A stretch of DNA of 64,000 nucleotides, taken from contig JAYUGC010000053.1 of the NCBI GenBank assembly GCA_043767805.1, positions 15,064 through 79,063 on the forward strand, written 5' to 3'. A program made the translations under genes and the position numbers. Under the pieces are notes generated by a model. It did not search any database, was not told where the DNA came from, and worked only from the letters and a program-made list of their open reading frames with translations. This stretch comes from Pseudomonadota bacterium (GTDB taxonomy: Bacteria > Bdellovibrionota > FAC87 > UBA2466). Below, piece after piece: positions 23,212-53,070 of this stretch (position 1 is its first letter; each line of letters begins with the position of its first letter).

Positions 23212-24032
23212 GTCTCGGTCCAGGGAAAGAGATCGAAGTTTACCTGGAAGGCTTGCTCGGGCGGCGCCTTTTCAATCCAAGGATCGATCTCTCTTAGAAA
23301 CTCGAGAAACCTCGACTGCACTTTCTTGTAAGTTTCCTGATTGGCCGAGAATGCCATGGAAAACCCGTACGCCTTCTCACGCGGCAAAGCTTGCAGCCTT
23401 TGCAGGGCGAGAAGCCGCACTTGGTTTCTCCACGCGACATAGGCAGCCGAATCCCGAGGCAGGTGAATATTTCTCACCTGCACCCGCATCTTCTCGCCTT
23501 CTCGTTTCACGAGCCCCATGCGCTCCAAGTTATCGAGCACCGGCAAAAGCATCTGCGGATGCAGCCCCAATTCAGTGGCGAGCAAAGTAGGATTCGCGCG
23601 ATAGCGATCGATGGAGAGGCAAATATGAACGACCTGATGAATCGGCTGTAGGTAATACTCGATAATGCCTTCTTCGGTCGCGAGCACCGGCCGATTGGCG
23701 AGGGACTTCTCCGATTTGAGATTAGCCTCCTGAATCGCACTCACCGCCTTCTGCAATTTCTTGCGTCGATCGGGCAACCCCGTGCGAGCGAGCTCGAGCA
23801 GCAGGTCTAGGTAGTGCGTCTCTTCTTCCGTCAAACCTAGAGCACGCGCTGCCATAAAGAGCTGGTCGGTGCTCAAGTGAGCGTCCCCTTTGAGTACCTT
23901 CGAGAGGTACGGCTTCTGGACGTGAATCTCCTCGGCAAGCCGCTGGAAGGTGTAGGAGCGATCGATACGTTTTCGTTCCTCAACAGTTTCCTTCAATATT
24001 TCTCGATAATTAGAGCTACTAAAAACATTCAT
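23208..24032 (-). CDS. HTH-containing hypothetical protein, TIGR02147/DUF4423-like
   Basis: N-terminal HTH-like SYTFQRLAEEIHVQKPYLSKVLKG; the family is recalled from Bdellovibrio/Fibrobacter paralogous families (memory-based). Confidence 0.4.
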   Translation of the reverse strand: MNVFSSSNYREILKETVEERKRIDRSYTFQRLAEEIHVQKPYLSKVLKGDAHLSTDQLFMAARALGLTEEETHYLDLLLELARTGLPDRRKKLQKAVSAIQEANLKSEKSLANRPVLATEEGIIEYYLQPIHQVVHICLSIDRYRANPTLLATELGLHPQMLLPVLDNLERMGLVKREGEKMRVQVRNIHLPRDSAAYVAWRNQVRLLALQRLQALPREKAYGFSMAFSANQETYKKVQSRFLEFLREIDPWIEKAPPEQAFQVNFDLFPWTET

Positions 24033-24171
24033 GTCTTGGTTTCCAATCAGGAAACTTATAGCACATTATGAATTACTTTTTAATATACCTGGGCCTCTGA
24101 AAACCCCTATATCTCCTCCCACGATTTGGCCCTGGAATCGGAAAACTCGAATCTCTATAAAGGAGCGAATT

Positions 24172-25080
24172 ATGAAACGTGTCATCTTACTCAGCTGCTT
24201 CACTGCCCTCTCGGCCATGGCCACCACCGGCGATAAATCCTCGGGCGGCGGAGACCCTTTACGCTTCGATTTCGAACAGGGAAAGGACCAGGCCATCTTC
24301 ATCTTGGACAACCTTTCCGAAGCGTCTTTCGACAAAGCCTCCGTCGAAGTGCGCAAGTACCTGCTCGAGTACCGCGGTAAATTATCCGGCGACTTGAAGA
24401 AGGCGCCTCTCGATTGGGATGCCCCGCAGTCTCAGAAGACCTGCGCGCATACCGACTTTCGCGAAAACGCCAAGATCGAGCTCTCGTTCGATAAATGCCG
24501 CGGGCGCATTTACTCGAAAGAAGACGCGGCCAAAACGCTCATTCACGAAGCCAGTCATCATTGGGGCGTGACGGACGAAACTTTCGCCGACCAGGTGGCC
24601 CTCGCGGCGTACGCGGCTTGGGAATCGAAGAAACTCGCCTCCATCCCGACCTGCCAAGGCCACGAGCTCATCGCCGAAGCGCTTCCCGGAGAGTGGCAAG
24701 TCAACAACGGCATCAGCCGGCTCTTGCCTGGTGGCGTACCCACGAAGTTCCAGACTCTTAAGTTAACGAACGATCCGACGGCGATTGCGAAAATTCCTGG
24801 CGTCGGCCTCTGTTCTTTCGTCTCGGGGGTTATGACGTTCGAGGAAAACGGAAAGGCCGTTTATGGCCCTCTTCCGTACATGCTGACCGAAGCGCACGGA
24901 AAACTCTTCCTAATGTCGTTCAAGGACGGCGGCGATGGCACCTTCAACTCCGAAGCGAACATGGTCACCTACTTCACGGAACGTGCGAAAGCGCCCCGAG
25001 GTGTGCTTTTCGTGGGCGGAGATCATGACGACGAGTCCGTCACCGCGTATGAGAAAAAGGCGCCGCTGAAAAAGCCCTAG
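24172..25080 (+). CDS. secreted hypothetical protein with an HExxH-like motif
   Basis: RBS AAGGAG; signal peptide MKRVILLSCFTALSAMA; LIHEASHHWG motif; start taken at the internal ATG at 24172. Confidence 0.5.
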   Translation: MKRVILLSCFTALSAMATTGDKSSGGGDPLRFDFEQGKDQAIFILDNLSEASFDKASVEVRKYLLEYRGKLSGDLKKAPLDWDAPQSQKTCAHTDFRENAKIELSFDKCRGRIYSKEDAAKTLIHEASHHWGVTDETFADQVALAAYAAWESKKLASIPTCQGHELIAEALPGEWQVNNGISRLLPGGVPTKFQTLKLTNDPTAIAKIPGVGLCSFVSGVMTFEENGKAVYGPLPYMLTEAHGKLFLMSFKDGGDGTFNSEANMVTYFTERAKAPRGVLFVGGDHDDESVTAYEKKAPLKKP

Positions 25081-29866: not shown

Positions 29867-30271
29867 TTGGAAACTGGATACATCACGGTCTTCTGGTTCG
29901 TGGTTTTCTCCTGTTTGACCGTTCCTTTGATGTTGGGAATCGGCTGGATCCTACGGCCGAAGCACACGCCCAAGGGTAAAGAAGCGCTTCCCTACGAGTG
30001 CGGCGAAGAGCCGACCGGTCCCGCCTGGGTACAGTTCAACATTCGCTTTTACGTGGTCGCCATCGTCTTCCTCATTTTCGACGTGGAGCTCGTGGCCCTT
30101 TATCCGGCGGCCGTTCTCTATAAGGACGCTATCAATAACGGCACCGGGGCTTTGGTTTTCGCAGAGATTTTCCTGTTCGTGGGGCTCCTCCTTGTGGGCC
30201 TCCTCTATTGTTGGGTTCGTGGAGACTTGGAGTGGGTTAAGGGCATCATCAAGATCGCCCCCCAGAAATAA
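29867..30271 (+). CDS. nuoA: NADH-quinone oxidoreductase subunit A (TTG start)
   Basis: 3 TM helices; ECGEEP and FDVEL motifs. Confidence 0.85.
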   Translation: METGYITVFWFVVFSCLTVPLMLGIGWILRPKHTPKGKEALPYECGEEPTGPAWVQFNIRFYVVAIVFLIFDVELVALYPAAVLYKDAINNGTGALVFAEIFLFVGLLLVGLLYCWVRGDLEWVKGIIKIAPQK

Positions 30272-30274
30272 CCA

Positions 30275-31420
30275 ATGGTACAAAGCGCAGCCTTTGCACA
30301 GTCCCTGCAGACCTGGGTGGGCCTCGGCCCCCTGTGGATGTGGGCCGCCCTTTCGGCCTTACTGATCATCTATCTCTTGGCTCTGCCGTTCGGCGGTTTG
30401 GCCACGTACGTAGAGCGTAAGGTTTCGGCCGACATGCAGGACCGCATCGGTCCGAACCGGGTCGGTCCCCTCGGCATCCTGCAGTTTCTCGCCGACGCCG
30501 TGAAAATGATTTCGAAGCAGGATTTCGTTCCGCCCGACGGCGATCGCTTCCTGTACGGCCTCGCCCCCATTCTGGTGGTCGGCGGCGTTTGCTCGGCCTT
30601 CGCCGTGCTTCCCCTCAGCCAGTACTTGATGGGCGCGGATATCGACATTGGCGTCTTCTACATGTTCGCCTGCAGCACCATCGTGGCGCCCGGCATCTTG
30701 CTCGGCTCCTGGTCGTCTGCGAACAAGTGGTCGCTTCTCGGAGGCCTTCGCGCCGCCGCTCAAATCGTCAGCTACGAAATCCCGGTGGCGCTTGCCATCG
30801 CGCCCATCATCTTGATCTCGGGCTCTCTTCGGGTCGGCAGCATCGTCGAGCAGCAAGGCTGGATTTGGTCGGGCGAAAACCCGTTGAACGCCCACTTCTG
30901 GAACGTGTTTCACAACCCGTTCTGCTTCGTGGCCTTCTTCCTCCTTTTCATCTCAGGCCTCGCCGAAACGAACCGCATTCCCTTCGACTTACCGGAAGCG
31001 GAATCGGAGCTCGTCTCCGGCTTCAACACGGAATTCTCCGGCATGCGCTTCGGCCTCTATGCCTTGGGCGAGTTCTGCGAAGTGTTCGTGATGTGCGCCC
31101 TAGCCGTCGCGCTTTATCTCGGCGGCTGGCATCTGCCCTTCTTAAATCTCGATGCCCTCTGGATCAAGCTCCCCACGGGACTCATCGCGCTCATTCAGTT
31201 CACGGTTTTCATGGCCAAGGTGCTCTTCCTGGTTTTCGTGGTCATGTGGTTGCGCTGGACTTTGCCCCGCCTTCGGGTCGACCAGCTCATGGGTTTCTGC
31301 TGGAAGGGTCTCGTGCCCTTGTCTCTCATCAACCTGCTCGGCACCGCGGTTTGGATGTGGGTGTTTCACAACAAATCGCTTATCCAGCTCGTTCTCGGCG
31401 CTGGCGGCGGGGGACACTGA
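30275..31420 (+). CDS. nuoH: NADH-quinone oxidoreductase subunit H
   Basis: YVERKVSADMQDRIGPNRVGP, GWSSANKWSLLGGLRAAAQ and ETNRIPFDLPEAESELV motifs. Confidence 0.9.
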   Translation: MVQSAAFAQSLQTWVGLGPLWMWAALSALLIIYLLALPFGGLATYVERKVSADMQDRIGPNRVGPLGILQFLADAVKMISKQDFVPPDGDRFLYGLAPILVVGGVCSAFAVLPLSQYLMGADIDIGVFYMFACSTIVAPGILLGSWSSANKWSLLGGLRAAAQIVSYEIPVALAIAPIILISGSLRVGSIVEQQGWIWSGENPLNAHFWNVFHNPFCFVAFFLLFISGLAETNRIPFDLPEAESELVSGFNTEFSGMRFGLYALGEFCEVFVMCALAVALYLGGWHLPFLNLDALWIKLPTGLIALIQFTVFMAKVLFLVFVVMWLRWTLPRLRVDQLMGFCWKGLVPLSLINLLGTAVWMWVFHNKSLIQLVLGAGGGGH

Positions 31421-31423
31421 TTT

Positions 31424-31942
31424 ATGTCGGATTCGGCAAAGCTTATCCTGCTCTTCGGGCAAATTCTGACCGTCGGCTCGGCGATCGTGGTGGCCATCCA
31501 CCCGAATATCCTCTACGCGGCGGTGGCGTTACTCTCGACGTTTCTGGGCGTGGCCATTCTCTTCTTGTTTAGTGGCGCGGACTTCGTGGCGGGCGCTCAA
31601 GTGGTGGTCTATGCGGGCGGTATCACCATCCTCATCCTCTTCGCCATTATGCTCACGCAGTGGCTCTATAAAGTTAAGCTGCGCGATTACGGCGCCAGGC
31701 TTCTGGTCCCAGCCGTAGTGGCTCTCGGCGTCTTTCTCGTCGTCTACCGCTCCACCGCGGAGCTCGGTAACTGGGCGCTAAAAAACGCGCCCACTGAAGC
31801 GGTCGACAAGTTCGCCTTCCTCCCGAAAACGGCCCTCATCGGTCAGGCGTTTCTCGGCCCGTACCTTTTAGCCTTTGAAGCGGTAACCATTCTCTTATTG
31901 GGCGCGCTCGTCGGAGCGGTCTGGCTGGCGAGGCCTAAATGA
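31424..31942 (+). CDS. nuoJ: NADH-quinone oxidoreductase subunit J
   Basis: 172 aa, 5 TM helices, NuoJ-like (VVYAGGITILILF). Confidence 0.8.
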   Translation: MSDSAKLILLFGQILTVGSAIVVAIHPNILYAAVALLSTFLGVAILFLFSGADFVAGAQVVVYAGGITILILFAIMLTQWLYKVKLRDYGARLLVPAVVALGVFLVVYRSTAELGNWALKNAPTEAVDKFAFLPKTALIGQAFLGPYLLAFEAVTILLLGALVGAVWLARPK

Positions 31943-32262
31943 ATCTTTTGAACTGGGCCACGGGCCTGCACGGCTACCTCTGGGTCAGCACGGCGCTCTT
32001 CGCGCTGGGCGTCCTCACCGTTTTGTCCCGCAAGAACGCCATCGGAATCCTGCTCGGCGTCGAATTGATTTTGAACGCGGCGGCCATCAACTTCGTGGCC
32101 TTCAGCCGTTTTCGCACCGGCGCCGTCGACGGACACATGGTGGCTCTTTTCATCATTTTGGTGGCGGCCGCTGAAGCTGCGGTCGCGCTCGCGATTATCT
32201 TGAGGCTCTACCGCCTCCGTCAGACGGTCGATACCGACGAGGCGACCCTCTTAAGGAACTAA
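31939..32262 (+). CDS. nuoK: NADH-quinone oxidoreductase subunit K
   Basis: 107 aa; conserved Glu in GVELILNA and in AAAEAAV. Confidence 0.85.
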   Translation: MNLLNWATGLHGYLWVSTALFALGVLTVLSRKNAIGILLGVELILNAAAINFVAFSRFRTGAVDGHMVALFIILVAAAEAAVALAIILRLYRLRQTVDTDEATLLRN

Positions 32263-32264
32263 CC

Positions 32265-34322
32265 ATGGCGCAAACTTGTCTGCTCATCGTGCTGCTTCCG
32301 CTCACCGCCTTCGTAGTGCAGGTGTTCTTCGGTAAGCGCTTGCCCCGCCAAGGAGACTGGGTCTCCATCCTGGCCATCGCCGGTTCGCTCTTTCTCGCTT
32401 TCCCGATTTTCACGGCTTTCCTCAGCACGGGTAACCTGCACGACACCTTGCAGACCACCTGGATGTCCCTGCCCATTCAGGTCTCCGGACACGGCGGCAT
32501 GTCGTCTTTCGACATCGTCATCGGCACGCTGGTCAATAACCTGACCGCCATCATGCTGTTTATGGTCACGCTCTGCGCGACCCTCATTCATATTTTCGCA
32601 AGCTCCTACATGCACGGCGAGCCCCGCTACCACCTTTTCTTCGCGTACATTTCGCTCTTCTCGGCGGCAATGCTGGGCTTGGTCGTCTCGGACAACCTGC
32701 TCACCTTCTTCATCTGCTGGGAGATCATGGGCCTTTGCTCCTACTCCCTCATCGGCTTCTACTACGAGAAGCCGTCCGCGAACGTGGCGAGCCTCAAAGC
32801 GTTCATGACCACTCGCGTGGGTGATTGCTGCTTCTTCCTCGGTATCTGCGGCTTGTACTTCCTGTTCGGCACTTCGAACTTCGAGCAGATTTATCAAAAC
32901 CTCGCGATGCCCGAGCTCGCGGGACGCACCATCTTAGGGATGCCGGCCTTGGCCTTCATCGGCTTTATGCTGATGATGGGCACCATCGGTAAATCGGCGC
33001 AGTTCCCGCTCCACATCTGGTTGCCGGACGCGATGGAAGGCCCGACACCCGTCTCGGCCCTCATCCACGCGGCCACCATGGTGGCCGCCGGCGTGTTCCT
33101 GCTCATTCGCACCTTCCCGCTGCTTCAAGCCGCGGAAATCGTGCTTCCGGTCATCGCCTACATCGGCGCGTTCACGGCGCTCTTTGCGGCGACGATTGCC
33201 CTGGTGCAGGTCGACATCAAGAAGGTGCTCGCCTACTCGACGATTTCTCAGCTCGGCTTCATGGTGTTCGGTGTCGGCGTCGGCGCTTTCGCGGCGGCTT
33301 TCCTCCACCTTCTCACCCACGCCGTTTTCAAAGCTTGTTTGTTCCTCGGCTCGGGTAGCGTCATCCACTCCGTTCACACGAACGACATGCGCGAAATGGG
33401 CGGCCTGCGCACCAAGATGCCTTGGACGTTCCGCACGATGCTGATTTCCACTTTCGCCATCAGCGGCTTGCCCTTCTTTTCGGGCTTCGTCTCGAAAGAC
33501 CGGATTCTCGCCGGCGCACTTGCTTACGGCATGGAACATCCGCAACACATGCTCGTGCCCATCTTCGGATTCACGGCGGCGGGCCTCACGGCGTTTTACA
33601 TGTTCCGCCTGATCTACCTGACGTTCTTCGGCCACGCGCGGGACGAGCACAAGCACCACCACGCGCACGAGTCGAGCCCGGTCATGACGGTGCCGCTCAT
33701 GATCCTAGCCACCCTCTCGTTTGCGATTTGGTACGCGGGCCCCACGGGCATCGAGTTTATCGATCACATCCTTCCGGTCCGCTGGTACGACATCGGCATC
33801 GCGAACGTCATGGAGTCGATGCACATTCACGCCGCCCACGGCGACGAGCACATCCATCACCTCGCCCACAACCTGGCGCTCATTTTGTCGCTCTCCATCG
33901 CGGGCGCGGGCATCCTGCTCTCGACTTTGATGTACCTGAAAAAGGTAATCTCGCCGGACGCTATCCAAAAGCGTCTTTCGGCCGTGCACAAAGTGCTTTG
34001 GAACAAGTATTACGTCGACGAGCTCTTCATCGGCATCGGGATTAAGAAGGGTCTTTTGACCTTCAACAACCTGCTCGCCCGCTTCGACGACTTGGTCGTG
34101 GACCGGATTTTCGTCGACGGCTGGAAAGATATCGCCATGGCCGTTAAGTCTGCGGTGAACCAGTTCGACAATATCGTCGTCGATAAGGGCCTCGTGGATG
34201 GAACCGCGTACGCGGTTTCCGCCGGCGGTTGGATGATCCGTCAGTTTCAGACCGGTCAGGTGCAGACGTACCTCGTTTGGACCTTGGTCGCTCTTGGCAT
34301 CTATTTGGTACGCGTTTTTTAA
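32265..34322 (+). CDS. nuoL: NADH-quinone oxidoreductase subunit L
   Basis: 685 aa; GKSAQFPLHIWLPDAMEGPTPVSALIHAATMVAAGVFLLIR; C-terminal long-helix region WNKYYVDELF. Confidence 0.9.
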   Translation: MAQTCLLIVLLPLTAFVVQVFFGKRLPRQGDWVSILAIAGSLFLAFPIFTAFLSTGNLHDTLQTTWMSLPIQVSGHGGMSSFDIVIGTLVNNLTAIMLFMVTLCATLIHIFASSYMHGEPRYHLFFAYISLFSAAMLGLVVSDNLLTFFICWEIMGLCSYSLIGFYYEKPSANVASLKAFMTTRVGDCCFFLGICGLYFLFGTSNFEQIYQNLAMPELAGRTILGMPALAFIGFMLMMGTIGKSAQFPLHIWLPDAMEGPTPVSALIHAATMVAAGVFLLIRTFPLLQAAEIVLPVIAYIGAFTALFAATIALVQVDIKKVLAYSTISQLGFMVFGVGVGAFAAAFLHLLTHAVFKACLFLGSGSVIHSVHTNDMREMGGLRTKMPWTFRTMLISTFAISGLPFFSGFVSKDRILAGALAYGMEHPQHMLVPIFGFTAAGLTAFYMFRLIYLTFFGHARDEHKHHHAHESSPVMTVPLMILATLSFAIWYAGPTGIEFIDHILPVRWYDIGIANVMESMHIHAAHGDEHIHHLAHNLALILSLSIAGAGILLSTLMYLKKVISPDAIQKRLSAVHKVLWNKYYVDELFIGIGIKKGLLTFNNLLARFDDLVVDRIFVDGWKDIAMAVKSAVNQFDNIVVDKGLVDGTAYAVSAGGWMIRQFQTGQVQTYLVWTLVALGIYLVRVF

Positions 34323-34339
34323 GGTGATGTGAGGAAACT

Positions 34340-35842
34340 ATGCTTAGTTGGATGACCTTTACCCCCCTTCTGGGGATGGCCGTCGTTCTTGCTCTCCCCA
34401 AGGAGAAGCACAATTTAATCCGCTGGACGGCACTCGTGACGTCCTTGATACCGCTCGGCTTCGCCGCGGTCCTTTTCATGCACTTCGACCGCACGACGGC
34501 GGCGATTCAGTTCGTGGAACGGGTTTCGTGGATTAAACCCTTTAACATCGAATACTACATGGGCGTCGACGGCCTGAGCATTCCGATGATTCTGCTGACC
34601 GCCCTACTCACCGTCATCTGCATCATCGCCTCGTGGACCATCGACTACGCGGTCAAAGGCTACTTCGCCATGTTCCTGATGCTGGAATGCGCCATGCTCG
34701 GCGTGTTCATGGCTTTGGACTTCTTCCTCTTCTTCATCTTCTGGGAAGCGATGCTGCTCCCGATGTACTTCCTAGTCGGTATCTGGGGAGGCCAGAACAA
34801 GGTCTATGCGGCCATCAAGTTCTTCCTCTACACGCTGTTCGGCTCCGTCTTGATGCTGATCGCGATGCTGGGCTTTTATTACTACGGCGGCCAGAGCTTC
34901 GATCTCATCAAACTCGCGGCGACGCATCCGTTCGCGGGTCAGACGATTGCCCTCTTCGGCTGTCAGATGCCTCTCGATAAGTTCTTCTGGGTGATGCTCT
35001 TTATCGGCTTCGCCATCAAGGTTCCCGTGTGGCCTTTCCACACCTGGTTGCCTTGGGCGCACGTCGAAGCCCCGACGGCGGTCTCGGTCATTCTGGCCGG
35101 CGTGCTGCTTAAGATGGGAACGTACGGCATCCTGCGCATGAACTTCCCGATCCTTCCCGAAGCGACCATGTGGGCCTCGAACGCCATGATGATCTTGGGC
35201 GTGATCAACATTCTCTACGGAGCCTTCTGCGCGATGGCGCAGAAGGATCTGAAAAAGCTCGTCGCTTACTCCTCCGTTTCCCACATGGGTTACGTGATGA
35301 TGGGCATGGCGACCTTTACGGTGGCCGGCGTGAACGGCGCCGTTCTCCAGATGTTCAACCACGGTACGTCGACGGCCATGCTCTTCCTCTTGGTCGGCGT
35401 GATCTACGACCGCGCTCATCACCGCTGGATCGTGCGCCCCGACGGCTCGCGCGGCTTCGGCGGTATCGCCGCGGTCGCTCCCGTGTACACGGCGATTTTC
35501 GCGGTGGCGCTGTTTGCGTCCCTCGGTCTTCCGGGCTTGTCCGGGTTCATCAGCGAAGCGCTGATCTTCCTCGGCGCCTTCTCGGTTCCGAAGTACCAGA
35601 CGCTCACCGTATTCGGCGCATTCGGCATCTTACTCGGCGCCGCGTACCTCCTCTGGATGTTCATGCGGGTGTTCTTAGGTCCCTTGAATCCCGAGTACGC
35701 GAACTTGGAAGACATGAACTGGCGTGAGCGAGGCATGCTCATTCCGCTTTGCATTCTCGTCGTGCTTTTCGGCGTCTATCCCATGCCGGTATTGAACTTG
35801 ATGGGAGCGACGGTCGCAAAGCTCCTGACTTACTTTTCGTGA
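34340..35842 (+). CDS. nuoM: NADH-quinone oxidoreductase subunit M
   Basis: FWEAMLLPMYFLVGIWGG, AIKVPVWPFHTWLPWAHVEAPT and GVLLKMGTYG motifs. Confidence 0.9.
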   Translation: MLSWMTFTPLLGMAVVLALPKEKHNLIRWTALVTSLIPLGFAAVLFMHFDRTTAAIQFVERVSWIKPFNIEYYMGVDGLSIPMILLTALLTVICIIASWTIDYAVKGYFAMFLMLECAMLGVFMALDFFLFFIFWEAMLLPMYFLVGIWGGQNKVYAAIKFFLYTLFGSVLMLIAMLGFYYYGGQSFDLIKLAATHPFAGQTIALFGCQMPLDKFFWVMLFIGFAIKVPVWPFHTWLPWAHVEAPTAVSVILAGVLLKMGTYGILRMNFPILPEATMWASNAMMILGVINILYGAFCAMAQKDLKKLVAYSSVSHMGYVMMGMATFTVAGVNGAVLQMFNHGTSTAMLFLLVGVIYDRAHHRWIVRPDGSRGFGGIAAVAPVYTAIFAVALFASLGLPGLSGFISEALIFLGAFSVPKYQTLTVFGAFGILLGAAYLLWMFMRVFLGPLNPEYANLEDMNWRERGMLIPLCILVVLFGVYPMPVLNLMGATVAKLLTYFS

Positions 35843-35850
35843 GATGATGC

Positions 35851-37338
35851 ATGGCTAATCTGCTGTTGAACTTGAAGCTCTTTGGACCCGAAGCGACCCT
35901 GGTGGGTCTCTTGGTCATCCTCTTTCTGGTGGACGGCTTTCTGCCGAAATCCCGGGAGAGCTTCTTGCCGCTCTGCCTGGTCGCCTTGGCTTCGGCCTTC
36001 GCGGCCTACATCACCTGTCAGCTGAACGTCGCCCCGGCGACCTTCTTCACGGGTCTTGTGGCGAACGACGGGTTCTCGGCTTTTTTCCGCTACATCTTCT
36101 TGTTCACGCTCGTTGCGGGACTCTATTTGGCCTATGGCTCCAAAGAAGTGCCCAAAGACGCCCGCATCGAGATGTCGCTGCTCCTCGTTTGCGTGACTTT
36201 CGGCATGAGCCTCATGGCCATTGCCTCGAACCTCTTGATGCTTTGGCTCGGCGTCGAAACGGTGAGTATCGTGTCCTTCGTGCTGGCGGGTTTTCGCCGG
36301 GACAACCTTCGCTCGAACGAAGCGTCCTTCAAGTACTTGGTCTACGGAAGCTTGGCTTCCGGACTCATGCTCTACGGCATGAGCCTCATCTATGGATTCG
36401 CGGGAAGCCTCTACTACGCCGACCTCAGCAAGTACTTCATGCTGCATTCGGGTGAGCTTCCCTACACTTTGGCGCTCTCCCTCCTTTTGGTGTTCGCGGG
36501 TCTCGCGTACAAAGTGTCGGCATTCCCGATGCACTTCTGGACCCCGGACGTTTACGAAGGCGCCCCCACTCCGGTGGCGGCGTTTTTCTCGGTAGGTCCC
36601 AAGGCGGCGGGATTTGCGGCCCTCATGCGCATCTTCCTCGACGTCTTTTCGTTCAAGACGGGGCCGCTTCAGTGGCATTCCGTCGAAGGCATCGCGATTC
36701 CCCACGGCTTGGCCATCATCGCGGCGCTCACCATGATCGTCGGTAACCTTTCCGCGCTCGGACAGACCAACGTGAAACGCATGCTCGCCTACTCGAGCAT
36801 CGCCCACGTCGGTTACATGCTGGCGGGTCTCGTGGCCTTAAATAGCGCGGGCATCACGGCGGTTCTCTTCTACATCGTCGCTTATTGCGGCATGAACCTC
36901 GGCGCTTTCTGGGTAGTGAGCGTCGTCACCGATCGGCGCGGCAACGAAGATCTCGAGGCTTTCCGCGGCATCGGCGCGAAGACGCCGCTGCTCGGCATCT
37001 GCATGGCGGTCTTTCTCTTTTCGCTGACCGGTTTGCCCCTTTTCTCCGGCTTCATTGGAAAGTTCCTGCTTTTTGGCGCCATTTTGCAGACTCCGGGCTT
37101 CCTATGGCTTGCGCTCATCGGCGTCTTGAACAGCGTCGTTTCGCTCTTTTATTACGTCCGGGTGCTGAAATCCATGTGGCTGGATAGTCCCGCGGCCGGA
37201 GACACCGGAGCGGTCGCGCTTCCGCTCTACCATGCGATTCCGCTCCTGGGCCTCGCAATCCCAACCATCATTCTCGGCCTCTTTTTCACGCCCATTTTCG
37301 AGTTCGCGCAGCGCTCGGTCGCCGCCTTCCTCAACTAG
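35851..37338 (+). CDS. nuoN: NADH-quinone oxidoreductase subunit N
   Basis: LWLGVETVS, AYKVSAFPMHFWTPDVYEGAPTP and KRMLAYSSIAHVGYML motifs. Confidence 0.9.
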   Translation: MANLLLNLKLFGPEATLVGLLVILFLVDGFLPKSRESFLPLCLVALASAFAAYITCQLNVAPATFFTGLVANDGFSAFFRYIFLFTLVAGLYLAYGSKEVPKDARIEMSLLLVCVTFGMSLMAIASNLLMLWLGVETVSIVSFVLAGFRRDNLRSNEASFKYLVYGSLASGLMLYGMSLIYGFAGSLYYADLSKYFMLHSGELPYTLALSLLLVFAGLAYKVSAFPMHFWTPDVYEGAPTPVAAFFSVGPKAAGFAALMRIFLDVFSFKTGPLQWHSVEGIAIPHGLAIIAALTMIVGNLSALGQTNVKRMLAYSSIAHVGYMLAGLVALNSAGITAVLFYIVAYCGMNLGAFWVVSVVTDRRGNEDLEAFRGIGAKTPLLGICMAVFLFSLTGLPLFSGFIGKFLLFGAILQTPGFLWLALIGVLNSVVSLFYYVRVLKSMWLDSPAAGDTGAVALPLYHAIPLLGLAIPTIILGLFFTPIFEFAQRSVAAFLN

Positions 37339-37341
37339 CCT

Positions 37342-37367
37342 CTTAAAAGATACGCCGTACCTTTTAG
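37342..37367. repeat. imperfect palindrome CTTAAAAGATACG/CCGTACCTTTTAG 4 nt after the nuoN stop (copy 2 of the recurrent motif)
   Basis: Read directly; shares the CTTAAAAG(G/A)TAC core with 4999-5018 and 60861-60887. Confidence 0.7.
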
Positions 37368-37406
37368 GACGACGGGGAATGGGTCCGACCGTATAATTCG
37401 GGAACT

Positions 37407-38045
37407 TTGAGCTCCTATTTTTCTATCGGACTCTCGGCCTTGTCTATCGCCGGAGGCGCCGTGGTTTTACTCAGTCATGGCGGGCGTATGCTCGCGGGCG
37501 GCTGGGCACTCACCTGCTTCTCGCTCTCGATCCTCGCGCTACTGCAACCCGGGCCGCCTTGGCTCTTGGCTCTCTTAATCGCCGGGCTCGCCGTCAGTCT
37601 CGGCCTGTCGCTTGCGGTGCTCGCTTCGGAATCGCTTCCCGGGTTCTTGGACGGAAACGTTCGCAAAATTCTCGCGGTATTCGCGGTCTGGGCAATCAGC
37701 CTCTTCATCCTTCGCTCGTCCCATGCCTCGCACCTCCATGGCGCGGCCGAGACCTATTGGTCGCTCTATAGTACGGCCGCCCTTTTCGGGCTGGGGTTAC
37801 TCACCCTCATCCTAAAGCGAGACGCCGTGCAAGTATGGAGCGGGGTGGGCCTTTTACTTTTAAGTCCCTTACCCACTTCGCTCGCTTCGGCCGCGGGGCT
37901 GCAATCGGGAGACGGCTGGCTACTATCGCTACTTTGTGGCGCGCTTTGCGCCGTGCACGGCGCATTCGCGATAGTGGTACTCGGACGCGTCAGCCGCCGG
38001 GAAGGCTCTCTCGACGTCAAAACTTGGGAGGAGCTTCAAGGGTGA
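37407..38045 (+). CDS. degenerate NuoJ'/NuoK'-like fused membrane protein (TTG start)
   Basis: The C-terminal half aligns to the adjacent NuoK (STAALFGLGLLTLILKRDAV vs STALFALGVLTVLSRKNAI), but the conserved Glu of GVELILN reads GVGLLLL. The N-terminal half has a weak NuoJ-like pattern (GGAVVLLSHGG vs GSAIVVAIHPN). About 6 TM helices. Confidence 0.55.
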   Translation: MSSYFSIGLSALSIAGGAVVLLSHGGRMLAGGWALTCFSLSILALLQPGPPWLLALLIAGLAVSLGLSLAVLASESLPGFLDGNVRKILAVFAVWAISLFILRSSHASHLHGAAETYWSLYSTAALFGLGLLTLILKRDAVQVWSGVGLLLLSPLPTSLASAAGLQSGDGWLLSLLCGALCAVHGAFAIVVLGRVSRREGSLDVKTWEELQG

Positions 38046-38992
38046 TTGGCTTTCAACACACTTGGTGGCGCATCGCGAGCTTCGACATCCTCTGTAGCTG
38101 GTACGCCGATAAATTTGATCTAGCCGCGCTCTTTGCCGTCTTCGCGCTGACCGTGCTGTGGGCGGCTCGCCAGCCTCGGGCCACGTGGGCCGCGGTAGTG
38201 TGGTTTCTGGCGACGGGCGCGCTTTGCGGCGCGGGAAACGCCTTCACGCTCATCTCCGCCTGGATGCTGGGAACCGTCGCGACCCTCGTCCTCTTTCACG
38301 CAAGCAGCGAGGGAAATCAACGCGGGCTATATACGTTCGCCCTGGCCGGTGCGCTTGCCGACGTTTTGCTTTTCTTGGGCTACCTGCTCTACGGCGGCAC
38401 TTACCGAGACAGCTTTCTTCCTACCGAAGAACAATTTTTAGAAGCGTCCGTGGCTTTGACGACGTTTCCTGCAAAGGCCTTTGCCCTAAGCGCGCTACTC
38501 GCCGTCTTAGCACGCCTCGTTATCGGCGCGGGAAGTCTTTGGCTTCCCGGCGAGCCGCAACTTCAAGCAAGAGAGTTCTTGGCGCAAAGACTCGCCGTAC
38601 TGCTCTTACCCTGCGTGATGCTACTCGATAAGCTCAGCTTTCTTAAAGCGGACGCCTCGGAAGGGGCGGTTCTCACCGTGCTAGTTCTTTCGATCCCCGC
38701 CATCTTGGGCGGTGCTTTTCACGCCATGAACCGGCCTTTCCCTTGGTTTCTCAATCCGGCCAAATGGTTCGACGAGCTCGTGCAAAAACCGTTGCGCTCT
38801 CTCATCGGCTTCTTCGACCGCAGGCTCGAAGCCCGCACCTTCGATGCCATTTTGATTCTGCCCACCCGGCTCGCGCGGGCGGGAGGCGTTTGGATTTCGC
38901 TCGTTCAGTCGGGTTCGCTCGCCTCTTACCTTACGTTTTCCGTACTGGGAATGGCGGCGCTTTTTGCCTGGGCACTGTGGGGAGGCAAATGA
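38042..38992 (+). CDS. degenerate NuoL'-like protein retaining N-terminal TM helices and the C-terminal long-helix region but lacking the antiporter core
   Basis: GTG start overlapping the upstream stop (GTGA). N-terminus has LVLFHASSEGNQRG, compared with LIHIFASSYMHGEPRY in NuoL. C-terminus has WFDELV...FFDRRLEARTFDAILI, compared with YYVDELF...RFDDLVVDRIFVDG in NuoL. Length is 316 aa against 685 aa for NuoL. Confidence 0.55.
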   Translation: MIGFQHTWWRIASFDILCSWYADKFDLAALFAVFALTVLWAARQPRATWAAVVWFLATGALCGAGNAFTLISAWMLGTVATLVLFHASSEGNQRGLYTFALAGALADVLLFLGYLLYGGTYRDSFLPTEEQFLEASVALTTFPAKAFALSALLAVLARLVIGAGSLWLPGEPQLQAREFLAQRLAVLLLPCVMLLDKLSFLKADASEGAVLTVLVLSIPAILGGAFHAMNRPFPWFLNPAKWFDELVQKPLRSLIGFFDRRLEARTFDAILILPTRLARAGGVWISLVQSGSLASYLTFSVLGMAALFAWALWGGK

Positions 38993-40506
38993 GTTACCTG
39001 CTTCCCTGGTTCTTTTATCTTCCGCTCATCGCCTTTGGCGCGGCGCTGCCTTTCTCGCTCGCTCTCTCCCGGCGAGTGGCCGGGGCGCTTGCGATCGTGA
39101 ACTTCCTTGCTCCGCTGACGTTTTATACCTTAGGCGACTCCGTGTGGCTCCAGACCCTGACAGGAATCACTTTCCAAAGCGGTCCCTTGCAACTTCAGCT
39201 CGATGCCTGGACGCTTCCCTTTCTGCTTCTCATCAAGCTCGCGGCCTTACTCGCCTTGAAACAACCTTCGGTCCGGCTGGGACGCACTCAGCTTGCCTGT
39301 CTTTTCGGAGCCGACTTTGCGCTTTCCGGGGCGCTATTTTCCACCGATGTTTTTGCCATCGTATTTTTCTCGCAGCTCGCCCTTGTTCCCCTTTCGCTGC
39401 TCATCGTGATCTGGGGCGGGCACGACCGGCTCTTCGCTTCGCGGAAGTTCTTTTTGTCTCAAACCGCGGGCTGCCTGCTTTGGCTCGTCGCCTTGGCGAT
39501 TCGCGCTTCCACTCACGAGTCTCAGTTCGGATATCCGAGCGGGCTCCCCGCGGATCTCGCCAAAGCCCTGGGACCGGCCGAGCTGACCGCTTTCGTCTGT
39601 TTTCTCCTGGGCTGTTTCCTTCGCTCCGCCGTGTTTCCGCTTCATAGCTGGCTGCCCGATACGCTGGCTCAAGCTCCCCTTTCGGCGAGTCTCCTTATCG
39701 TCGGTGGGCTGCTTCCTTCCGGCATTCTCCTGCTTCAGCGCGTGGGCCTTTCCGTTTTCCCGGCGGGCTTTGAGCGCGCGCAAAACCTGGGAACGGCCCT
39801 CGCGGTGTTCGGAGCGATTTACTCAGGGCTACTCGCCTGGCGGCAAAACGATAGCCGCCGCTACCTCGCCTTCGCGGCCAGTCTACTCATGTCGTTCGTT
39901 CTGGGAGGCGTGCTCATGGCGGGTCCGCTCACTTGGACGGCCAGCGCCTTTCTCCTCTGCGCGGGCTCACTCGCGAGTCTTGGCGTTTTGATTCTTTTCG
40001 AGTGGGCTTTTGAGCGCCAGAATAGCCGTCAGCTACCGGATTGGGCGGGGCTCGGGCAACAGAGCCCGCTCTTCCGCGGTTTTCTCGTATTCCTCACCCT
40101 GAGCGCGCTCACGCTTCCGGGCACCGCGGCCTTTCCTGGAACCTTCGCGCTTTTGACCGCCGCCATAAACCGCAACTTCATCTGGTGTGTAGGCTGGCTT
40201 GCCTCACTTTTCCTTTTGATGGCAAGTGCCGTGCGCCTGCTCGGTACGATTTCCTTCGGCACGCCTCGCCGCGGCCCGCTAGTCGCTGGATCCGATCTGT
40301 CGACGAGTGAGTCGTTGAGACTCTTGGCCCTTTCTCTGCTTCTTTTGGCTTTGGGCTGCGCTCCCGGTGGGTTTCTGGCTTCTTTAGAGCGGCCCATCGA
40401 GTCTTTCTGGGAAGCGAGTCCCGCGAAGGAGCGGTTCGTCTTTCCCGGAGACGAAGGCAAGAGCACCTTGCCAAGAGTCTTTCACCGGGATGAGGTTCCG
40501 CAATGA
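38991..40506 (+). CDS. degenerate NuoM'-like antiporter-family subunit
   Basis: ATG overlapping the upstream stop (ATGA); FAIVFFSQLALVPLSLLIVIWGGHDRLFASRKFFL aligns to [33 protein letters not shown] of NuoM; FPLHSWLPDTLAQAP aligns to WPFHTWLPWAHVEAP. Confidence 0.65.
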
Positions 40507-41891
40507 ATCCTTCTTCCGCGACTTTCTACGTCGTGGGCTTTCTCTTCGCGAGCGCGGTGCTAGCCGCGGCGGTTGCGCACTCACGGCGGCTTTCTCTTTA
40601 CCTTTCCGTTTTCGCTTTTGGGACGGCCGAGCTTGCGCTCGGCTGGCTCGCCGCTGGCAGAGTTGGCAACTGGCTTCCGCCCGTCGACTCCCGCTTTCTG
40701 ACCCTCTCGGGTTACCGCTTGGATGCGGCTTCGCTCCTTCTGCTTTTTTGTGCGGCTTCTTATTTACTGGTCCACGCGTTTGCCGAAGATGAGGTGAAAC
40801 GCGGAAGCTTGGGGCCGCTCTTCCTGCTTGCGGCGGCCGCGGGAATTTTATGCGCCGCCAGTGAGAACCTCTTAGTCACTTGCTTTGGCCTGGAGCTCGG
40901 CGCGCTTGCCGCCCACGGCATCACCGCCTTTCCCTCGCTCACCCGAGATCGGTTTGAAGCCCTCTGGAAACAGTATGCGTTCCATGGCCTGGGCACGGCT
41001 TGCCTACTTTTGGGCAGCGCTCTGTTTTACTCTCAGCTTGGCACTCTCGCTCTTACCGAAATTAGAGACACCCTTGCCGCCCAGCCGCCTTCGCCTTTCG
41101 TCACCGTGGCGTGTGTCTTATTGCTACTGGGCATCGCGGAGAGGCTCGGCGCGTTTCCCTTTCTCTCTTGGCCCGCCGACGTGACCGAAGGATCGCCATG
41201 GGGCGGGGTGTTTCTCGAAACGGCGGGACGCTTTATTTCGATCTGTGCCCTACTGCCGCTTTTCCTCGAAGCTCTGCTTCCGCTTCGGTCCGCTTGGGTG
41301 GGCCCGCTCTTCGTCATTGGCGGAGTCACTCTCGCGTGGGGCGCGCTAGGTGCGATCACGCAAACGAATCTGAAACGCTTACTCGCCTATTTAGGACAGG
41401 CGCACGTCGGGTGGCTACTTCTTTTTGCGGCGGCTTCCAGCGAACGAGGCAGCCTTGCCGGTCACTTTCTACCTTCAGCTCTCATCTTCGCCCTGGTCGC
41501 CCTCGGACTTCGCGCCGGTGTCTGTCTTTTGGAGCGCGAGGCAAATGACTGCGATATTTATCAGCTCTCGGGACTAGGAGAAACCCATCCCGTGCTCGCT
41601 CTGTGGTGGACGTTACTTTGCCTGGCCGGCGCGGGATTTCCACCGACCTCCGGGTTTGCCGCGCAAACGGCTTTCTTCCTGGAGCTCGGCTCGACCGGCC
41701 ACGTACTGCGCCTAATCGCCATCGGCGTGGGTTTATTGGCCGTGGCCTATTCTTACTTGAGAATGGTCGCTTACCTCTACGGCCGGGAATGCCGGGAGAC
41801 CATCGCGTTGACCCACCGGGCGGCGCTTCCCATCGCCTGCGCCTCGGCGTGCGCGATACTGGCGGTAGTGCTCCTCTTTTTCTGGCGCTAA
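40503..41891 (+). CDS. degenerate NuoN'-like antiporter-family subunit
   Basis: Overlaps the upstream stop; NLLVTCFGLELGA aligns to NLLMLWLGVETVS; AFPFLSWPADVTEG aligns to AFPMHFWTPDVYEG; KRLLAYLGQAHVGWLL aligns to KRMLAYSSIAHVGYML. Confidence 0.65.
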   Translation: MNPSSATFYVVGFLFASAVLAAAVAHSRRLSLYLSVFAFGTAELALGWLAAGRVGNWLPPVDSRFLTLSGYRLDAASLLLLFCAASYLLVHAFAEDEVKRGSLGPLFLLAAAAGILCAASENLLVTCFGLELGALAAHGITAFPSLTRDRFEALWKQYAFHGLGTACLLLGSALFYSQLGTLALTEIRDTLAAQPPSPFVTVACVLLLLGIAERLGAFPFLSWPADVTEGSPWGGVFLETAGRFISICALLPLFLEALLPLRSAWVGPLFVIGGVTLAWGALGAITQTNLKRLLAYLGQAHVGWLLLFAAASSERGSLAGHFLPSALIFALVALGLRAGVCLLEREANDCDIYQLSGLGETHPVLALWWTLLCLAGAGFPPTSGFAAQTAFFLELGSTGHVLRLIAIGVGLLAVAYSYLRMVAYLYGRECRETIALTHRAALPIACASACAILAVVLLFFWR

Positions 41892-42313
41892 CGAAAGTCA
41901 GAAGGAAGCTTTCCAGTCACTTTGCGAAACGCGTGAATGAATTGGGAGAGTGAGGAGTGGCCCACTTCGAGCGCCACGTCCGTCACGGAAGTGTCCCGCT
42001 TGTTTAAAAGACGTTTCGCCTTTTCCATCCGGCAGAAGAGCACCATCTGCTTCGGAGAAAAAGAAAGCTCGTCCAAACAAATCCGGTTGAGGCTTCTGAG
42101 GGAGAGGCCAGAGTGCTTCGCGATTTCTTCGACCGACAAAGGCTCTTTGAAGTTCGCTTCGATATAATCGACCGCGCGAGTGACACGAGCATCTTTGGCG
42201 AGCTCATGAAGTCGAAATGCTTTGCTCTCGCTCTCCTTGCTACCACGGCCTGCGCGGCCCAAAAGCCCGCGGTCTACACGTTCGAATCGGACAGGGGGTG
42301 GCTTTAACACCAA
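41888..42313 (-). CDS. AraC-family transcriptional regulator (HTH domain)
   Basis: LSVEEIAKHSGLSLRSLNR...DVALEVGHSSLSQFIHAFRKVTGKLPSDFR is the AraC C-terminal dual HTH; the N-terminal ligand domain appears short or absent. Confidence 0.65.
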   Translation of the reverse strand: MVLKPPPVRFERVDRGLLGRAGRGSKESESKAFRLHELAKDARVTRAVDYIEANFKEPLSVEEIAKHSGLSLRSLNRICLDELSFSPKQMVLFCRMEKAKRLLNKRDTSVTDVALEVGHSSLSQFIHAFRKVTGKLPSDFR

Positions 42314-51636: not shown

Positions 51637-53070
51637 CTACCTCAGAGCCTTCGCCGTAAGCTGAGTGGGCGACTGCTCTAGGTTCAAGCCAGGATCGGAC
51701 TTATCCGTGCGATCGGCGCGAGGATGGCCGGTGCCCTTCAATTCGTTTCTCATCTCGGGCGTGAGATCGTTGATGCGGACCGCGTTCATGGAACCGGGCT
51801 TGATGCGGAACTTCAAAAACTCTTTGCTATTGTCGCGCACGAAATCCGCGCGGGTCGCGACTTCCGCCATGCCCTTCGCCGCGTCTTCGAGCGCGCGGTT
51901 GTAGCCTTCAATCTGCTGACGGTTCGTGCGACGCACTTTCTTATAAGTGAGGCCGCCGACGTTATACTCCTTCAATTCAGTCGTGATGTCGTCCTGACGG
52001 ATTTTACCGAAACCAGGGCGAGGCATCTTGGTCACATCAGCGCCGGCGAAATCGATGGCGGCGATGTTGAGACGCATCTTCCACTGATCGATTTGCTCTT
52101 CGTTGCCCGCGCCTTTGGTGACCTGGTCGCCTTCGGCTTTGGGATTGATGGCGAAAACGGAAGTCGCTTTGAGCGCGCGGCACGCGGCCACCCGCTGATC
52201 CATGGACTGCGCCTGGGTCTCGGGCTGAAGCCCGGGCTGCGCTTGAACGCGCTCCTGGATGCCGGTCGCTTCCTGATCGTTTTGCACGGCGGTCGCGTAC
52301 GCATCGCAATCAGGTACGTCTTCACCGAGCGCAGCTTCCACGCCGGGTTGCATCGCGCGCGATTCCCCCAGCGAAGCGACCATGCGGTTGCGGTACATCT
52401 TCGTCCAGCGGCTCGCCATGAGACGTAAGGACTCGATGTTGGGCATGGTGTTCTCGCCCTTACCGGTGCTGTCATCGTAAGTGAGAGAAATCTGGCGGAC
52501 GGCCGTATCGAGACCGACTTTTTCCACGTCCTGACGAACGTCGCCCAAGAGACGGAAATCAGCGAGCCCTTTCAAATCGAATTTGCCGTCGGCGTCCAAG
52601 TTGCTGCCGCCGTCCGGGCGATCCACTTCCCAAATCGTGTGCACGGGCCCGACGGAATCGCCTTGGGTTTTTCTCGCGGCCCAAGCCGCGGCAACCACGC
52701 CTTCGAGAGGCGACTTATCGCCGCCGAATCCGTGCGGCGATACGAAAGGATCGAGCCAGCTATTACAAAATTGTCCGCCCACCCATTCGAGGCACCGGCT
52801 CCAGACGTTGGAGTGGTAGGTGGTATTGGAGGTGAAGGAGTTGCCATCGTTTTTGTTGAAGCTCTGGCCTCCCGTGCCCGCGCTTTCCGGGTAGCTCGCT
52901 TCCTTCATATCCAAGGATTTGCCGAGTTTGAGGAGCTTCTCCGCAAGCCGGCGGCGCGCTTCTTTGTCGCCGCCCGTTTCGAGCTCGGCGAACCCGGAGC
53001 TGGAGAGAAGGAGTGCGCCCAAAAGGCACCCCAGCCAGATCCTAAAAGCTTTTCCCCCTATGCGAATCAT
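51637..53070 (-). CDS. secreted hypothetical protein (477 aa)
   Basis: Signal peptide; hydrophilic Asp/Gly-rich body. Confidence 0.5.
   Translation of the reverse strand: MIRIGGKAFRIWLGCLLGALLLSSSGFAELETGGDKEARRRLAEKLLKLGKSLDMKEASYPESAGTGGQSFNKNDGNSFTSNTTYHSNVWSRCLEWVGGQFCNSWLDPFVSPHGFGGDKSPLEGVVAAAWAARKTQGDSVGPVHTIWEVDRPDGGSNLDADGKFDLKGLADFRLLGDVRQDVEKVGLDTAVRQISLTYDDSTGKGENTMPNIESLRLMASRWTKMYRNRMVASLGESRAMQPGVEAALGEDVPDCDAYATAVQNDQEATGIQERVQAQPGLQPETQAQSMDQRVAACRALKATSVFAINPKAEGDQVTKGAGNEEQIDQWKMRLNIAAIDFAGADVTKMPRPGFGKIRQDDITTELKEYNVGGLTYKKVRRTNRQQIEGYNRALEDAAKGMAEVATRADFVRDNSKEFLKFRIKPGSMNAVRINDLTPEMRNELKGTGHPRADRTDKSDPGLNLEQSPTQLTAKALR

Follow-up and report, generated by a model that had tools for sequence, protein, structure and literature searches.

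A diverged nuoKLMN-like gene set with replaced proton-relay residues downstream of the complex I membrane-arm genes in a Bdellovibrionota bacterium

Background

What use could a bacterium have for a second copy of the distal membrane arm of complex I in which the residues for proton transfer have been replaced? This question is raised by a 64,000-nucleotide (nt) stretch of DNA from a Pseudomonadota bacterium (Bdellovibrionota in the GTDB lineage; assembly GCA_043767805.1, contig JAYUGC010000053.1, positions 15,064 to 79,063), which is referred to below as the window. Downstream of the canonical nuoAHJKLMN genes, which encode membrane-arm subunits of complex I, the window carries four open reading frames (ORFs), designated X1 to X4 in this study, which a first-pass annotation had described as a degenerate but retained duplicate of the J-K-L-M-N genes. 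Our analysis indicates that X1-X4 encode diverged relatives of NuoK, NuoL, NuoM and NuoN that have lost nearly the whole canonical proton relay while being maintained by selection, and that may form a non-pumping module working with complex I.

Homology of X1-X4 to NuoK, NuoL, NuoM and NuoN

The lengths, positions and plus-strand orientation proposed for the four ORFs downstream of canonical nuoAHJKLMN were confirmed (Table 1). The genes are arranged in the order K'-L'-M'-N', which copies the order of nuoKLMN, and at each of the three junctions the start and stop codons overlap by 4 nt (GTGA at 38042-38045, ATGA at 38989-38992 and ATGA at 40503-40506). Overlaps at all three junctions had been noted before, although the second had been placed 2 nt off, at 38991 instead of 38989. 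The same 4-nt overlaps are present in the orthologous loci L002, L003 and L006, in line with the proposed translational coupling of the four genes.

X3 and X4 both matched PF00361 over the TM4-TM13 core (E = 9.5e-29 and 101 bits for X3, E = 1.1e-34 and 120 bits for X4, cutoff 21.5). The best family was NuoM for X3 (TIGR01972, E = 3e-50) and NuoN for X4 (TIGR01770, E = 2e-47), yet the scores of 171 and 162 bits lay below the respective cutoffs of 264 and 333, and Mrp and hydrogenase models scored below the Nuo models for both proteins. The best structural match of X3 was PDB 8qby_M (E = 4e-31), and X3 was aligned residue by residue to E. coli NuoM; that of X4 was PDB 8e9g_N (E = 4e-33). The expectation that each ORF would align to its adjacent canonical counterpart was borne out for X3 with NuoM (23% identity) and X4 with NuoN (28%), while the pairwise alignment of X2 with NuoL was not significant and that relationship emerged from profile methods only. 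Residues ~470-505 of X3 (window 40396-40503) form a conserved hydrophilic tail (RF..PGDEG..TLP.VF) that is also present in L002 and absent from NuoM, and to which a soluble partner may dock.

The C-terminal part of X1 (amino acids (aa) ~120-212) appears to be a complete NuoK-like domain of three transmembrane (TM) helices. Residues 120-211 aligned with positions 3-94 of the 95 positions of PF00420 (E = 1e-3, 19 bits, below the cutoff of 26), the NCBIfam NuoK model matched with E = 3e-4, and a profile of four orthologues matched residues 9-100 of E. coli NuoK (E = 1e-4). The N-terminal half, which is conserved from the TTG start onward, contains four predicted TM helices with a spacing like that of NuoJ TM1-4. 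X1 gave no match to PF00499, residues 1-112 gave no Pfam, NCBIfam or PDB match, and the N-terminal half had no sequence similarity to NuoJ, NuoK or NuoA (Smith-Waterman comparison with the window NuoJ, z <= 1). NuoJ ancestry of this half is unsupported, the resemblance being confined to helix spacing, and the J part of the proposed J-K-L-M-N duplicate is consequently without support; what remains is a set of four diverged relatives of canonical subunits in K-L-M-N order. The fusion of four and three TM helices in X1 would be topologically compatible with NuoK.

X2 had no Pfam (PF00361 and PF00662 included) or NCBIfam match, and its profile had no match in PDB. An exhaustive HMMER search weakly matched X2 residues 241-308 to the C-terminus (541-608) of a 617-aa NuoL, P0135, and hhalign aligned the C-terminal part of X2 with residues 647-681 of the window NuoL (E = 1e-4, or 1.8e-5 with an enlarged profile). 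From the E. coli and T. thermophilus structures, we take X2 residues 241-316 to be the end of the lateral helix HL followed by TM16. The X2 helix extending from NPAKWFDE to QSGS is ~52 aa long, which is its length in the 617-aa NuoL. These comparisons give solid support to the derivation of the predicted lateral helix and last TM helix of X2 from NuoL.

When an eight-sequence X2 profile was compared with a broad antiporter-like alignment, X2 3-304 was colinear with NuoL 61-356 (P = 4.4e-4). X2 residues ~3-230 align with NuoL TM2/3 to TM8, with motif pairs in TM4-5 (GNAFTLISAWM and DNLLTFFICWE), TM6 (ALADVLLFLG and RVGDCCFFLG) and TM7 (LWLPGEP and IWLPDAM). Pairwise Smith-Waterman comparisons of the N-terminal part with NuoL, NuoM and NuoN did not reach significance, the exception being one sequence with z = 3.4 against NuoM, and hhalign of this part against NuoN alone gave E = 0.23. 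Since these simple tests were null, the putative homology of the N-terminal half to NuoL ~TM1-8 is graded as weakly to moderately supported. A counterpart of NuoL TM9-15 is missing. X2 therefore appears to be a NuoL that has lost ~TM9-15 and kept the clamp helix, that is, a half-subunit (~TM1-8) fused to the lateral helix and TM16 rather than the full NuoL counterpart that had been proposed.

Replacement of the proton-relay residues

In the structures of complex I, Mrp and Mbh, the relay residues form a lateral chain for proton transfer, in which arginine keeps the charge of lysine but is an impractical proton carrier. The canonical subunits of the window retain these residues (Table 1), and in a set of 113 ordinary NuoN proteins, those closest to X4 in the database, the relay glutamate was found in 112 and the three relay lysines in 112, 113 and 111 sequences, respectively. 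In X1-X4, almost all canonical relay residues are replaced, mostly lysine by arginine. The replacements are common to the alignable X orthologues, and the distant locus L005 has Ala in place of the TM5 Glu of X3 (FFWALAP) and Val in place of E72 of X1. Since arginine is unable to shuttle protons, canonical pumping would not be expected. The earlier description of the module as apparently non-pumping is thus consistent with the predicted loss of canonical pumping residues in all four proteins, with the qualification that X4 keeps the TM5 Glu and the TM11 His.

Table 1. Positions of the X genes, the canonical nuo genes and associated elements in the window, with the residues at relay positions
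Feature	Position	Strand	Description
X1	37407-38045	+	212 aa; TTG start; seven predicted TM helices; NuoK glutamates (E. coli numbering): E36 to G148, E72 to H184
X2	38042-38992	+	316 aa; GTG start; truncated NuoL-like; TM5 Glu to M75, TM7 Lys to R158, TM8 His/Lys to R183, TM11 and TM12 positions absent
X3	38989-40506	+	505 aa; ATG start; NuoM-like; 14 TM helices; TM5 Glu to Q129, TM7 Lys to R212, TM8 Lys to P243, TM11 His to L300, TM12 Glu to T385
X4	40503-41891	+	462 aa; ATG start; NuoN-like; TM5 Glu kept (E131), TM7 Lys to R214, TM8 Lys to R243, TM11 His kept (H301), TM12 Lys to Q388
Canonical nuoA-H-J-K-L-M-N	29867-37338	+	strong Pfam matches; catalytic residues intact
nuoA	29867-30271	+	
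nuoH	30275-31420	+	
nuoJ	31424-31942	+	
nuoK	31939-32262	+	E42, E79
nuoL	32265-34322	+	E153, K243, H268, K411
nuoM	34340-35842	+	E136, K227, K258, H315, E406
nuoN	35851-37338	+	E136, K221, K251, H319, K404; stop TAG 37336-37338
28-aa tandem duplication in NuoL lateral helix	34119-34202	+	aa 619-646; FDDLVVDRIFVDG... / FDNIVVDKGLVDG...; alignment to 617-aa P0135
Hairpin	37341-37369	+	directly after the nuoN stop codon
TATAATTC box	37392-37399	+	9 nt before the X1 TTG start

Proposed origin and role of the X module

The K-L-M-N order and the better match to Nuo than to Mrp proteins point to duplication of a segment of a nuo operon, for which the canonical nuo genes of the window, also a possible partner of the module, are the presumed template; the family matches that favour Nuo are those to the NuoM and NuoN TIGRFAMs, to NuoK/FpoK and to the NuoL C-terminus. 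An ancient duplication of nuoK-L-M-N would therefore be the best explanation for the origin of X1-X4. Regarding their role, we favour a distal module, accessory or alternative, that does not pump and cooperates with complex I, and to this statement as a whole a probability of roughly 0.55 is given. The X proteins would come together as the subunits of the distal P-module do, arranged as X1(K')-X4(N')-X3(M')-X2(half L'), and the lateral helix of X2, being of normal length, would clamp X3 and X4 and be anchored near X4/X1, as that of NuoL is over NuoM and NuoN. Such a subcomplex of ~45 TM helices without an intact relay would not carry out canonical proton pumping, and its arginines would retain the buried positive charge, and hence the fold and its electrostatics, without shuttling protons. 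The module would then extend or replace part of the complex I arm rather than act as an independent ion pump.

A more specific and quite tentative version of this proposal is that X1-X4 attaches to the canonical distal arm or takes its place in exchange, which would result in either a very long arm with proton-dead but electrostatically intact subunits or a switchable "low-gear" arm that lowers H+/e-. The window NuoL is 685 aa long, and the 28-aa duplication in its lateral helix is also present in the NuoL of L006. It is possible that this extension is linked to the X module; if docking or swapping takes place, the longer helix would be an adaptation that accommodates an X subunit.

Several observations weigh against the favoured explanation. 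In L003, L004 and the P0126 contig, X1 is preceded by a gene of the opposite strand, and these three relatives, among them the closest one, L003 (77-79% identity), thus keep the X operon without a same-strand nuo gene upstream. The X proteins are Lys-poor and Arg-rich overall, and the lysine-to-arginine pattern could be partly compositional and not site-specific. Residual ion chemistry in X4 is possible, given the two relay residues that it retains. The homology of the N-terminal half of X2 depends on the single profile-profile P-value given above, and the AlphaFold2 models of X1 (4 sequences) and X2 (3 sequences), with predicted local distance difference test scores of 47 and 42, respectively, were too poor for a fold search.

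Putative promoter and genomic context of the X operon

The first-pass annotation had described the module as attached to a complex I membrane arm. X1 is separated from nuoN, however, by a 68-nt spacer that contains a hairpin and a conserved -10-like box. Irrespective of the gene that lies upstream, the TATAATTC box and the TTG start, 8-9 nt apart, are the same in the window, L006, L003 and L004, and the putative promoter region of L003 reads GTGACA-17 nt-TATAAT. The box is probably the -10 element of the X operon's own promoter, judging from this conservation, and the transcript leader would be very short or absent. A generic promoter scan missed the TATAAT box in the window, where the -35 region is poor, and the generic scan found no excess of promoter-like sites (2 versus a shuffle mean of 3.4) or of terminator-like sites (22 versus 21.7). 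The hairpin after nuoN folds with -14.3 kcal/mol in the window, no better than shuffles, and its equivalent in L006 folds with -21.1 kcal/mol (z = -4.8). No clear T-run was found at this hairpin, which may set nuoN apart from the X operon as a terminator or a processing structure.

The gene directly upstream of X1 is nuoN in the window and in L006, and a same-strand partial gene lies 39-60 nt upstream of X1 in two further contigs; the X operon is thus adjacent to nuo genes in 2 (possibly 4) of 7 informative loci. Synteny of nuoN and X1 among relatives, which the first-pass annotation had proposed to look for, was accordingly found in L006 and not in the three loci with an opposite-strand upstream gene. 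In L003 this gene encodes a glycosyltransferase. A simple local inversion was rejected as the cause of the L003 arrangement, because the glycosyltransferase has no counterpart in the window. As the X operon does not follow a same-strand gene in these three relatives, it appears to be an autonomous transcription unit.

In the window as in L001 and L002, X4 adjoins a convergent AraC-family gene. In the window (41888-42313, minus strand), it overlaps the X4 stop codon by 4 nt and encodes the helix-turn-helix (HTH) part only (141 aa). The orthologue in L002 has 259 aa, with a cupin/AraC ligand-binding domain, which indicates that the window gene has been truncated at its N-terminus by a rearrangement beside the asparaginase gene.

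An arrangement of this kind could also be that of an autonomous membrane transporter with altered chemistry, which would move an ion or a substrate via an Arg-lined path independently of complex I. The conserved -10 box, the presence of an opposite-strand gene instead of a nuo gene upstream in three lineages, and the cupin sensor domain of the convergent AraC-type regulator that adjoins X4 in L002 would all suit such a transporter, as would purifying selection on all four X genes and the invariant buried Arg and Glu residues (R158, E171, R177/E178 and R183 in X2; E131, R214 and R243 in X4). However, X3 has no titratable residue at any relay position, X2 is without the whole second repeat of five helices, the part of this fold that makes up the P-side half-channel, and the X operon includes no MrpE/F/G-like or other partner genes. 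To our knowledge, there is no precedent for a transporter of this kind, and we consider this explanation unlikely.

Distribution, selection and composition of the X genes

The X family is tiny, with about eight loci among billions of proteins, and its copies come from uncultured metagenomes and metagenome-assembled genomes such as GCA_964653655.1 (L006). X4 has two orthologues (74% and 64% identity), after which the next matches are ordinary NuoN proteins at 33%; X2 has three to four orthologues and X1 has three. An exhaustive HMMER search with X2 of 1.84 billion representative proteins returned one family representative, P0131, and a distant 247-aa relative, P0134, and alignments of X2 against GTDB genome contigs (two scans) and JGI metagenome contigs (two scans) revealed no relatives. 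In L005, positions 1-1296 encode the end of an X1-like protein (...RWEELRG), an X2-like protein that is shorter (247 aa) and the beginning of an X3-like protein, with overlapping genes; this distant version of the module indicates that the X family reaches beyond close relatives.

The X orthologues in other assemblies are 49-79% identical to those of the window, and no locus was seen with a disrupted X ORF, even where identity falls to 49-53%. The ratio of nonsynonymous to synonymous substitution rates (dN/dS) was 0.11-0.23 for X1, 0.12-0.27 for X2, 0.17-0.19 for X3 and 0.16 for X4. Between the window and GCA_964653655.1, X1-X4 are 53-62% identical (dN 0.31-0.43), the nuo genes have 75-89% aa identity (dN 0.085-0.17, dN/dS 0.09-0.18), and the neighbouring asparaginase gene has a dN of 0.27 and a dN/dS of 0.15; the X genes thus evolve at 3-4 times the rate of the nuo genes nearby. 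The intact copies, the dN/dS values and the comparison of dN with the nuo genes lead to the conclusion that the X genes are real and under purifying selection, though less constrained than the pump. Retention under selection rather than decay, as suggested previously, is therefore upheld.

The Ala/Leu-rich composition that had been noted was also found, with Ala plus Leu accounting for 34-36% of X1-X4 versus 23-29% of NuoL, NuoM and NuoN. The G+C content at third codon positions (GC3) of X1-X4 (0.66-0.69) is like that of ordinary neighbouring genes, while that of the canonical nuo genes is 0.79-0.82; the agreement with the neighbours argues for native genes of modest expression that are not recent imports. 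Across the window, the nuo genes, metG and the gene for a TLC-domain protein have GC3 values of 0.78-0.82, and most neighbours together with X1-X4 have values of 0.61-0.73. The high values suggest that highly expressed genes are codon-optimised.

That X1-X4 are the decaying remains of another nuo operon, in which non-functional or near-neutral ORFs happen to be still open, is improbable in view of these data. The loss of the catalytic residues, the rapid evolution relative to nuo, the very narrow distribution and the scores below the family cutoffs are what such a relic might display, but the ORFs are intact in every locus, the dN/dS values of 0.11-0.27 are comparable to that of the asparaginase gene, the overlapping start and stop codons and the promoter box are conserved, and the operon was retained after relocation in L003.

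Comparison with known systems

The first-pass annotation had stated that the module corresponds to no standard Nuo, Mrp, Mbh or Fpo layout, which agrees with our comparisons, and no account of a degenerate K-L-M-N operon turned up in our literature searches. By its fold, the X module is a member of the complex I/Mrp superfamily. The X module resembles the complex I P-module (NuoK/L/M/N) in its folds, family matches and gene order and in the NuoL lateral helix and TM16 kept by X2. It differs in that all X scores are under the curated family cutoffs, the Glu/Lys/His relay is replaced, the L-like protein is without TM9-15, the K-like domain stands behind four extra TM helices, and the X operon is without A, H and J partners and has putative transcription of its own.

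Extra antiporter-like genes beside a complex I arm are also present in the 2M complex of Nitrospira and in the five-pump Complex_I_3 of Ca. Manganitrophaceae. PMC9040806 describes a 26-aa insertion at a similar NuoL site in the Nitrospira 2M complex I, thought to accommodate a fourth antiporter-like subunit, and similar NuoL insertions in operons without an extra subunit. In that paper, which cites Chadwick et al. 2018, the extra subunits of the 2M and five-pump systems are described as catalytically intact NuoM/MrpD copies inside the nuo operon. The 28-aa insertion in the NuoL of the window and of L006 resembles the 26-aa insertion. The X proteins, by contrast, are degenerate, include K-like and half-L subunits of their own and are encoded in a separate operon.

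By analogy with these systems, X3 and X4 could be imagined to pump as additional subunits of complex I and so to increase its H+/e- ratio. The window nuo operon has one nuoM only, its NuoL carries the 2M-type insertion nonetheless, and the NuoM-like X3, the sole other M-like gene nearby, lies just downstream. A second, catalytically intact nuoM is not found in the window nuo operon, however, and X3 is without any relay residue, with Q, R, P, L and T at the five positions; X4 has R, R and Q at the TM7, TM8 and TM12 positions, all of these being near-invariant in functional subunits. The X scores are also far under the NuoM and NuoN family cutoffs, and the X module, unlike the 2M complexes, brings its own K-like and L-like parts, so that additional pumping is highly improbable. 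An artefact of assembly or annotation, such as a collapsed or duplicated nuo region, can for practical purposes be dismissed, because no DNA-level repeat linking the nuo genes to X1-X4 was found, the X proteins share no more than 23-29% identity with the canonical subunits, and both junctions are reproduced independently (the nuoN-X1-X2 stretch, junction included, in the second genome L006, and the X3-X4-AraC stretch, with the X4/AraC junction, in the independent assembly L001).

For the favoured accessory or alternative arm, the alternative distal modules of cyanobacterial NDH-1 provide the closest functional analogy. In systems such as ndhF3-ndhD3-cupA-cupS, paralogous antiporter-like subunits, which have an operon of their own, join a common core and confer a different function on the enzyme. 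Unlike the X proteins, NdhD3 and NdhF3 keep the relay residues and are associated with carbonic-anhydrase-like CupA/S partners, of which the X module has no equivalent; moreover, the X module also duplicates the K and N equivalents.

The Mrp (CPA3) antiporters share with the X genes a stand-alone operon, in which MrpC is K-like, MrpA is L-like and has a lateral helix, and MrpD is M/N-like. The X operon differs in having no equivalents of MrpB, MrpE, MrpF or MrpG, in the better fit of its proteins to Nuo models and in the loss of functional residues; no MrpB/E/F/G-type Pfam families were found in the four X genes or the flanking genes. In the membrane-bound hydrogenase, the small subunit MbhI carries the lateral helix apart from an antiporter-like core. 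X2 is similar in that its lateral clamp helix is on a protein short of a complete antiporter-like subunit, but it retains half of the antiporter-like core, and there are no hydrogenase-like genes near the X operon.

Other genes in the window

The canonical nuo cluster (29867-37338) encodes membrane subunits only, with nuoA followed after 3 nt by nuoH, and nuoH by nuoJ. The nuoB, C, D, E, F, G and I genes are absent from the 64-kb window. The nuo operon of L006 has the same layout.

A gene at 14094-15407 (plus strand) encodes a TLC ATP/ADP-transporter domain (PF03219, E = 2e-19). This family is typical of energy-parasitic or predatory bacteria, and the gene is therefore a hint at the lifestyle of the host. 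Upstream of mfd-gpsA are genes for a DUF4423/HTH regulator (23208-24032, minus strand) and a XerC/D-type tyrosine recombinase (18510-19508, minus strand), and a tRNA-Leu(CAG) gene is located at 996-1080.

Several long ORFs (349-583 aa) had no Pfam match. Those at 6904-8274, 10165-11916 (minus strand), 11840-13198 (minus strand), 51637-53070 (minus strand) and 62575-63864 (minus strand) had none at E <= 1e-5, and the one at 24031-25080 had none at E <= 1e-3. The overlapping minus-strand pair at 10165-13198 may include spurious calls.

Conclusions

Both the charge relay along the antiporter-like subunits and the role of the lateral helix are debated in the complex I field. The X module is a naturally selected copy of K-L-M-N in which buried lysines appear to have become arginines and half of L to have been deleted while the lateral helix was kept, a pattern which suggests that the overall build and the clamp are of value apart from proton pumping. 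Bound to complex I, the X module would represent a new way to tune or extend the enzyme; as a free-standing entity, it would belong to a new class of pseudo-enzyme membrane scaffold with its origin in a respiratory pump. Should the module dock onto or swap with the canonical arm, it would constitute a natural lysine-to-arginine "mutant arm" that has been kept by selection.

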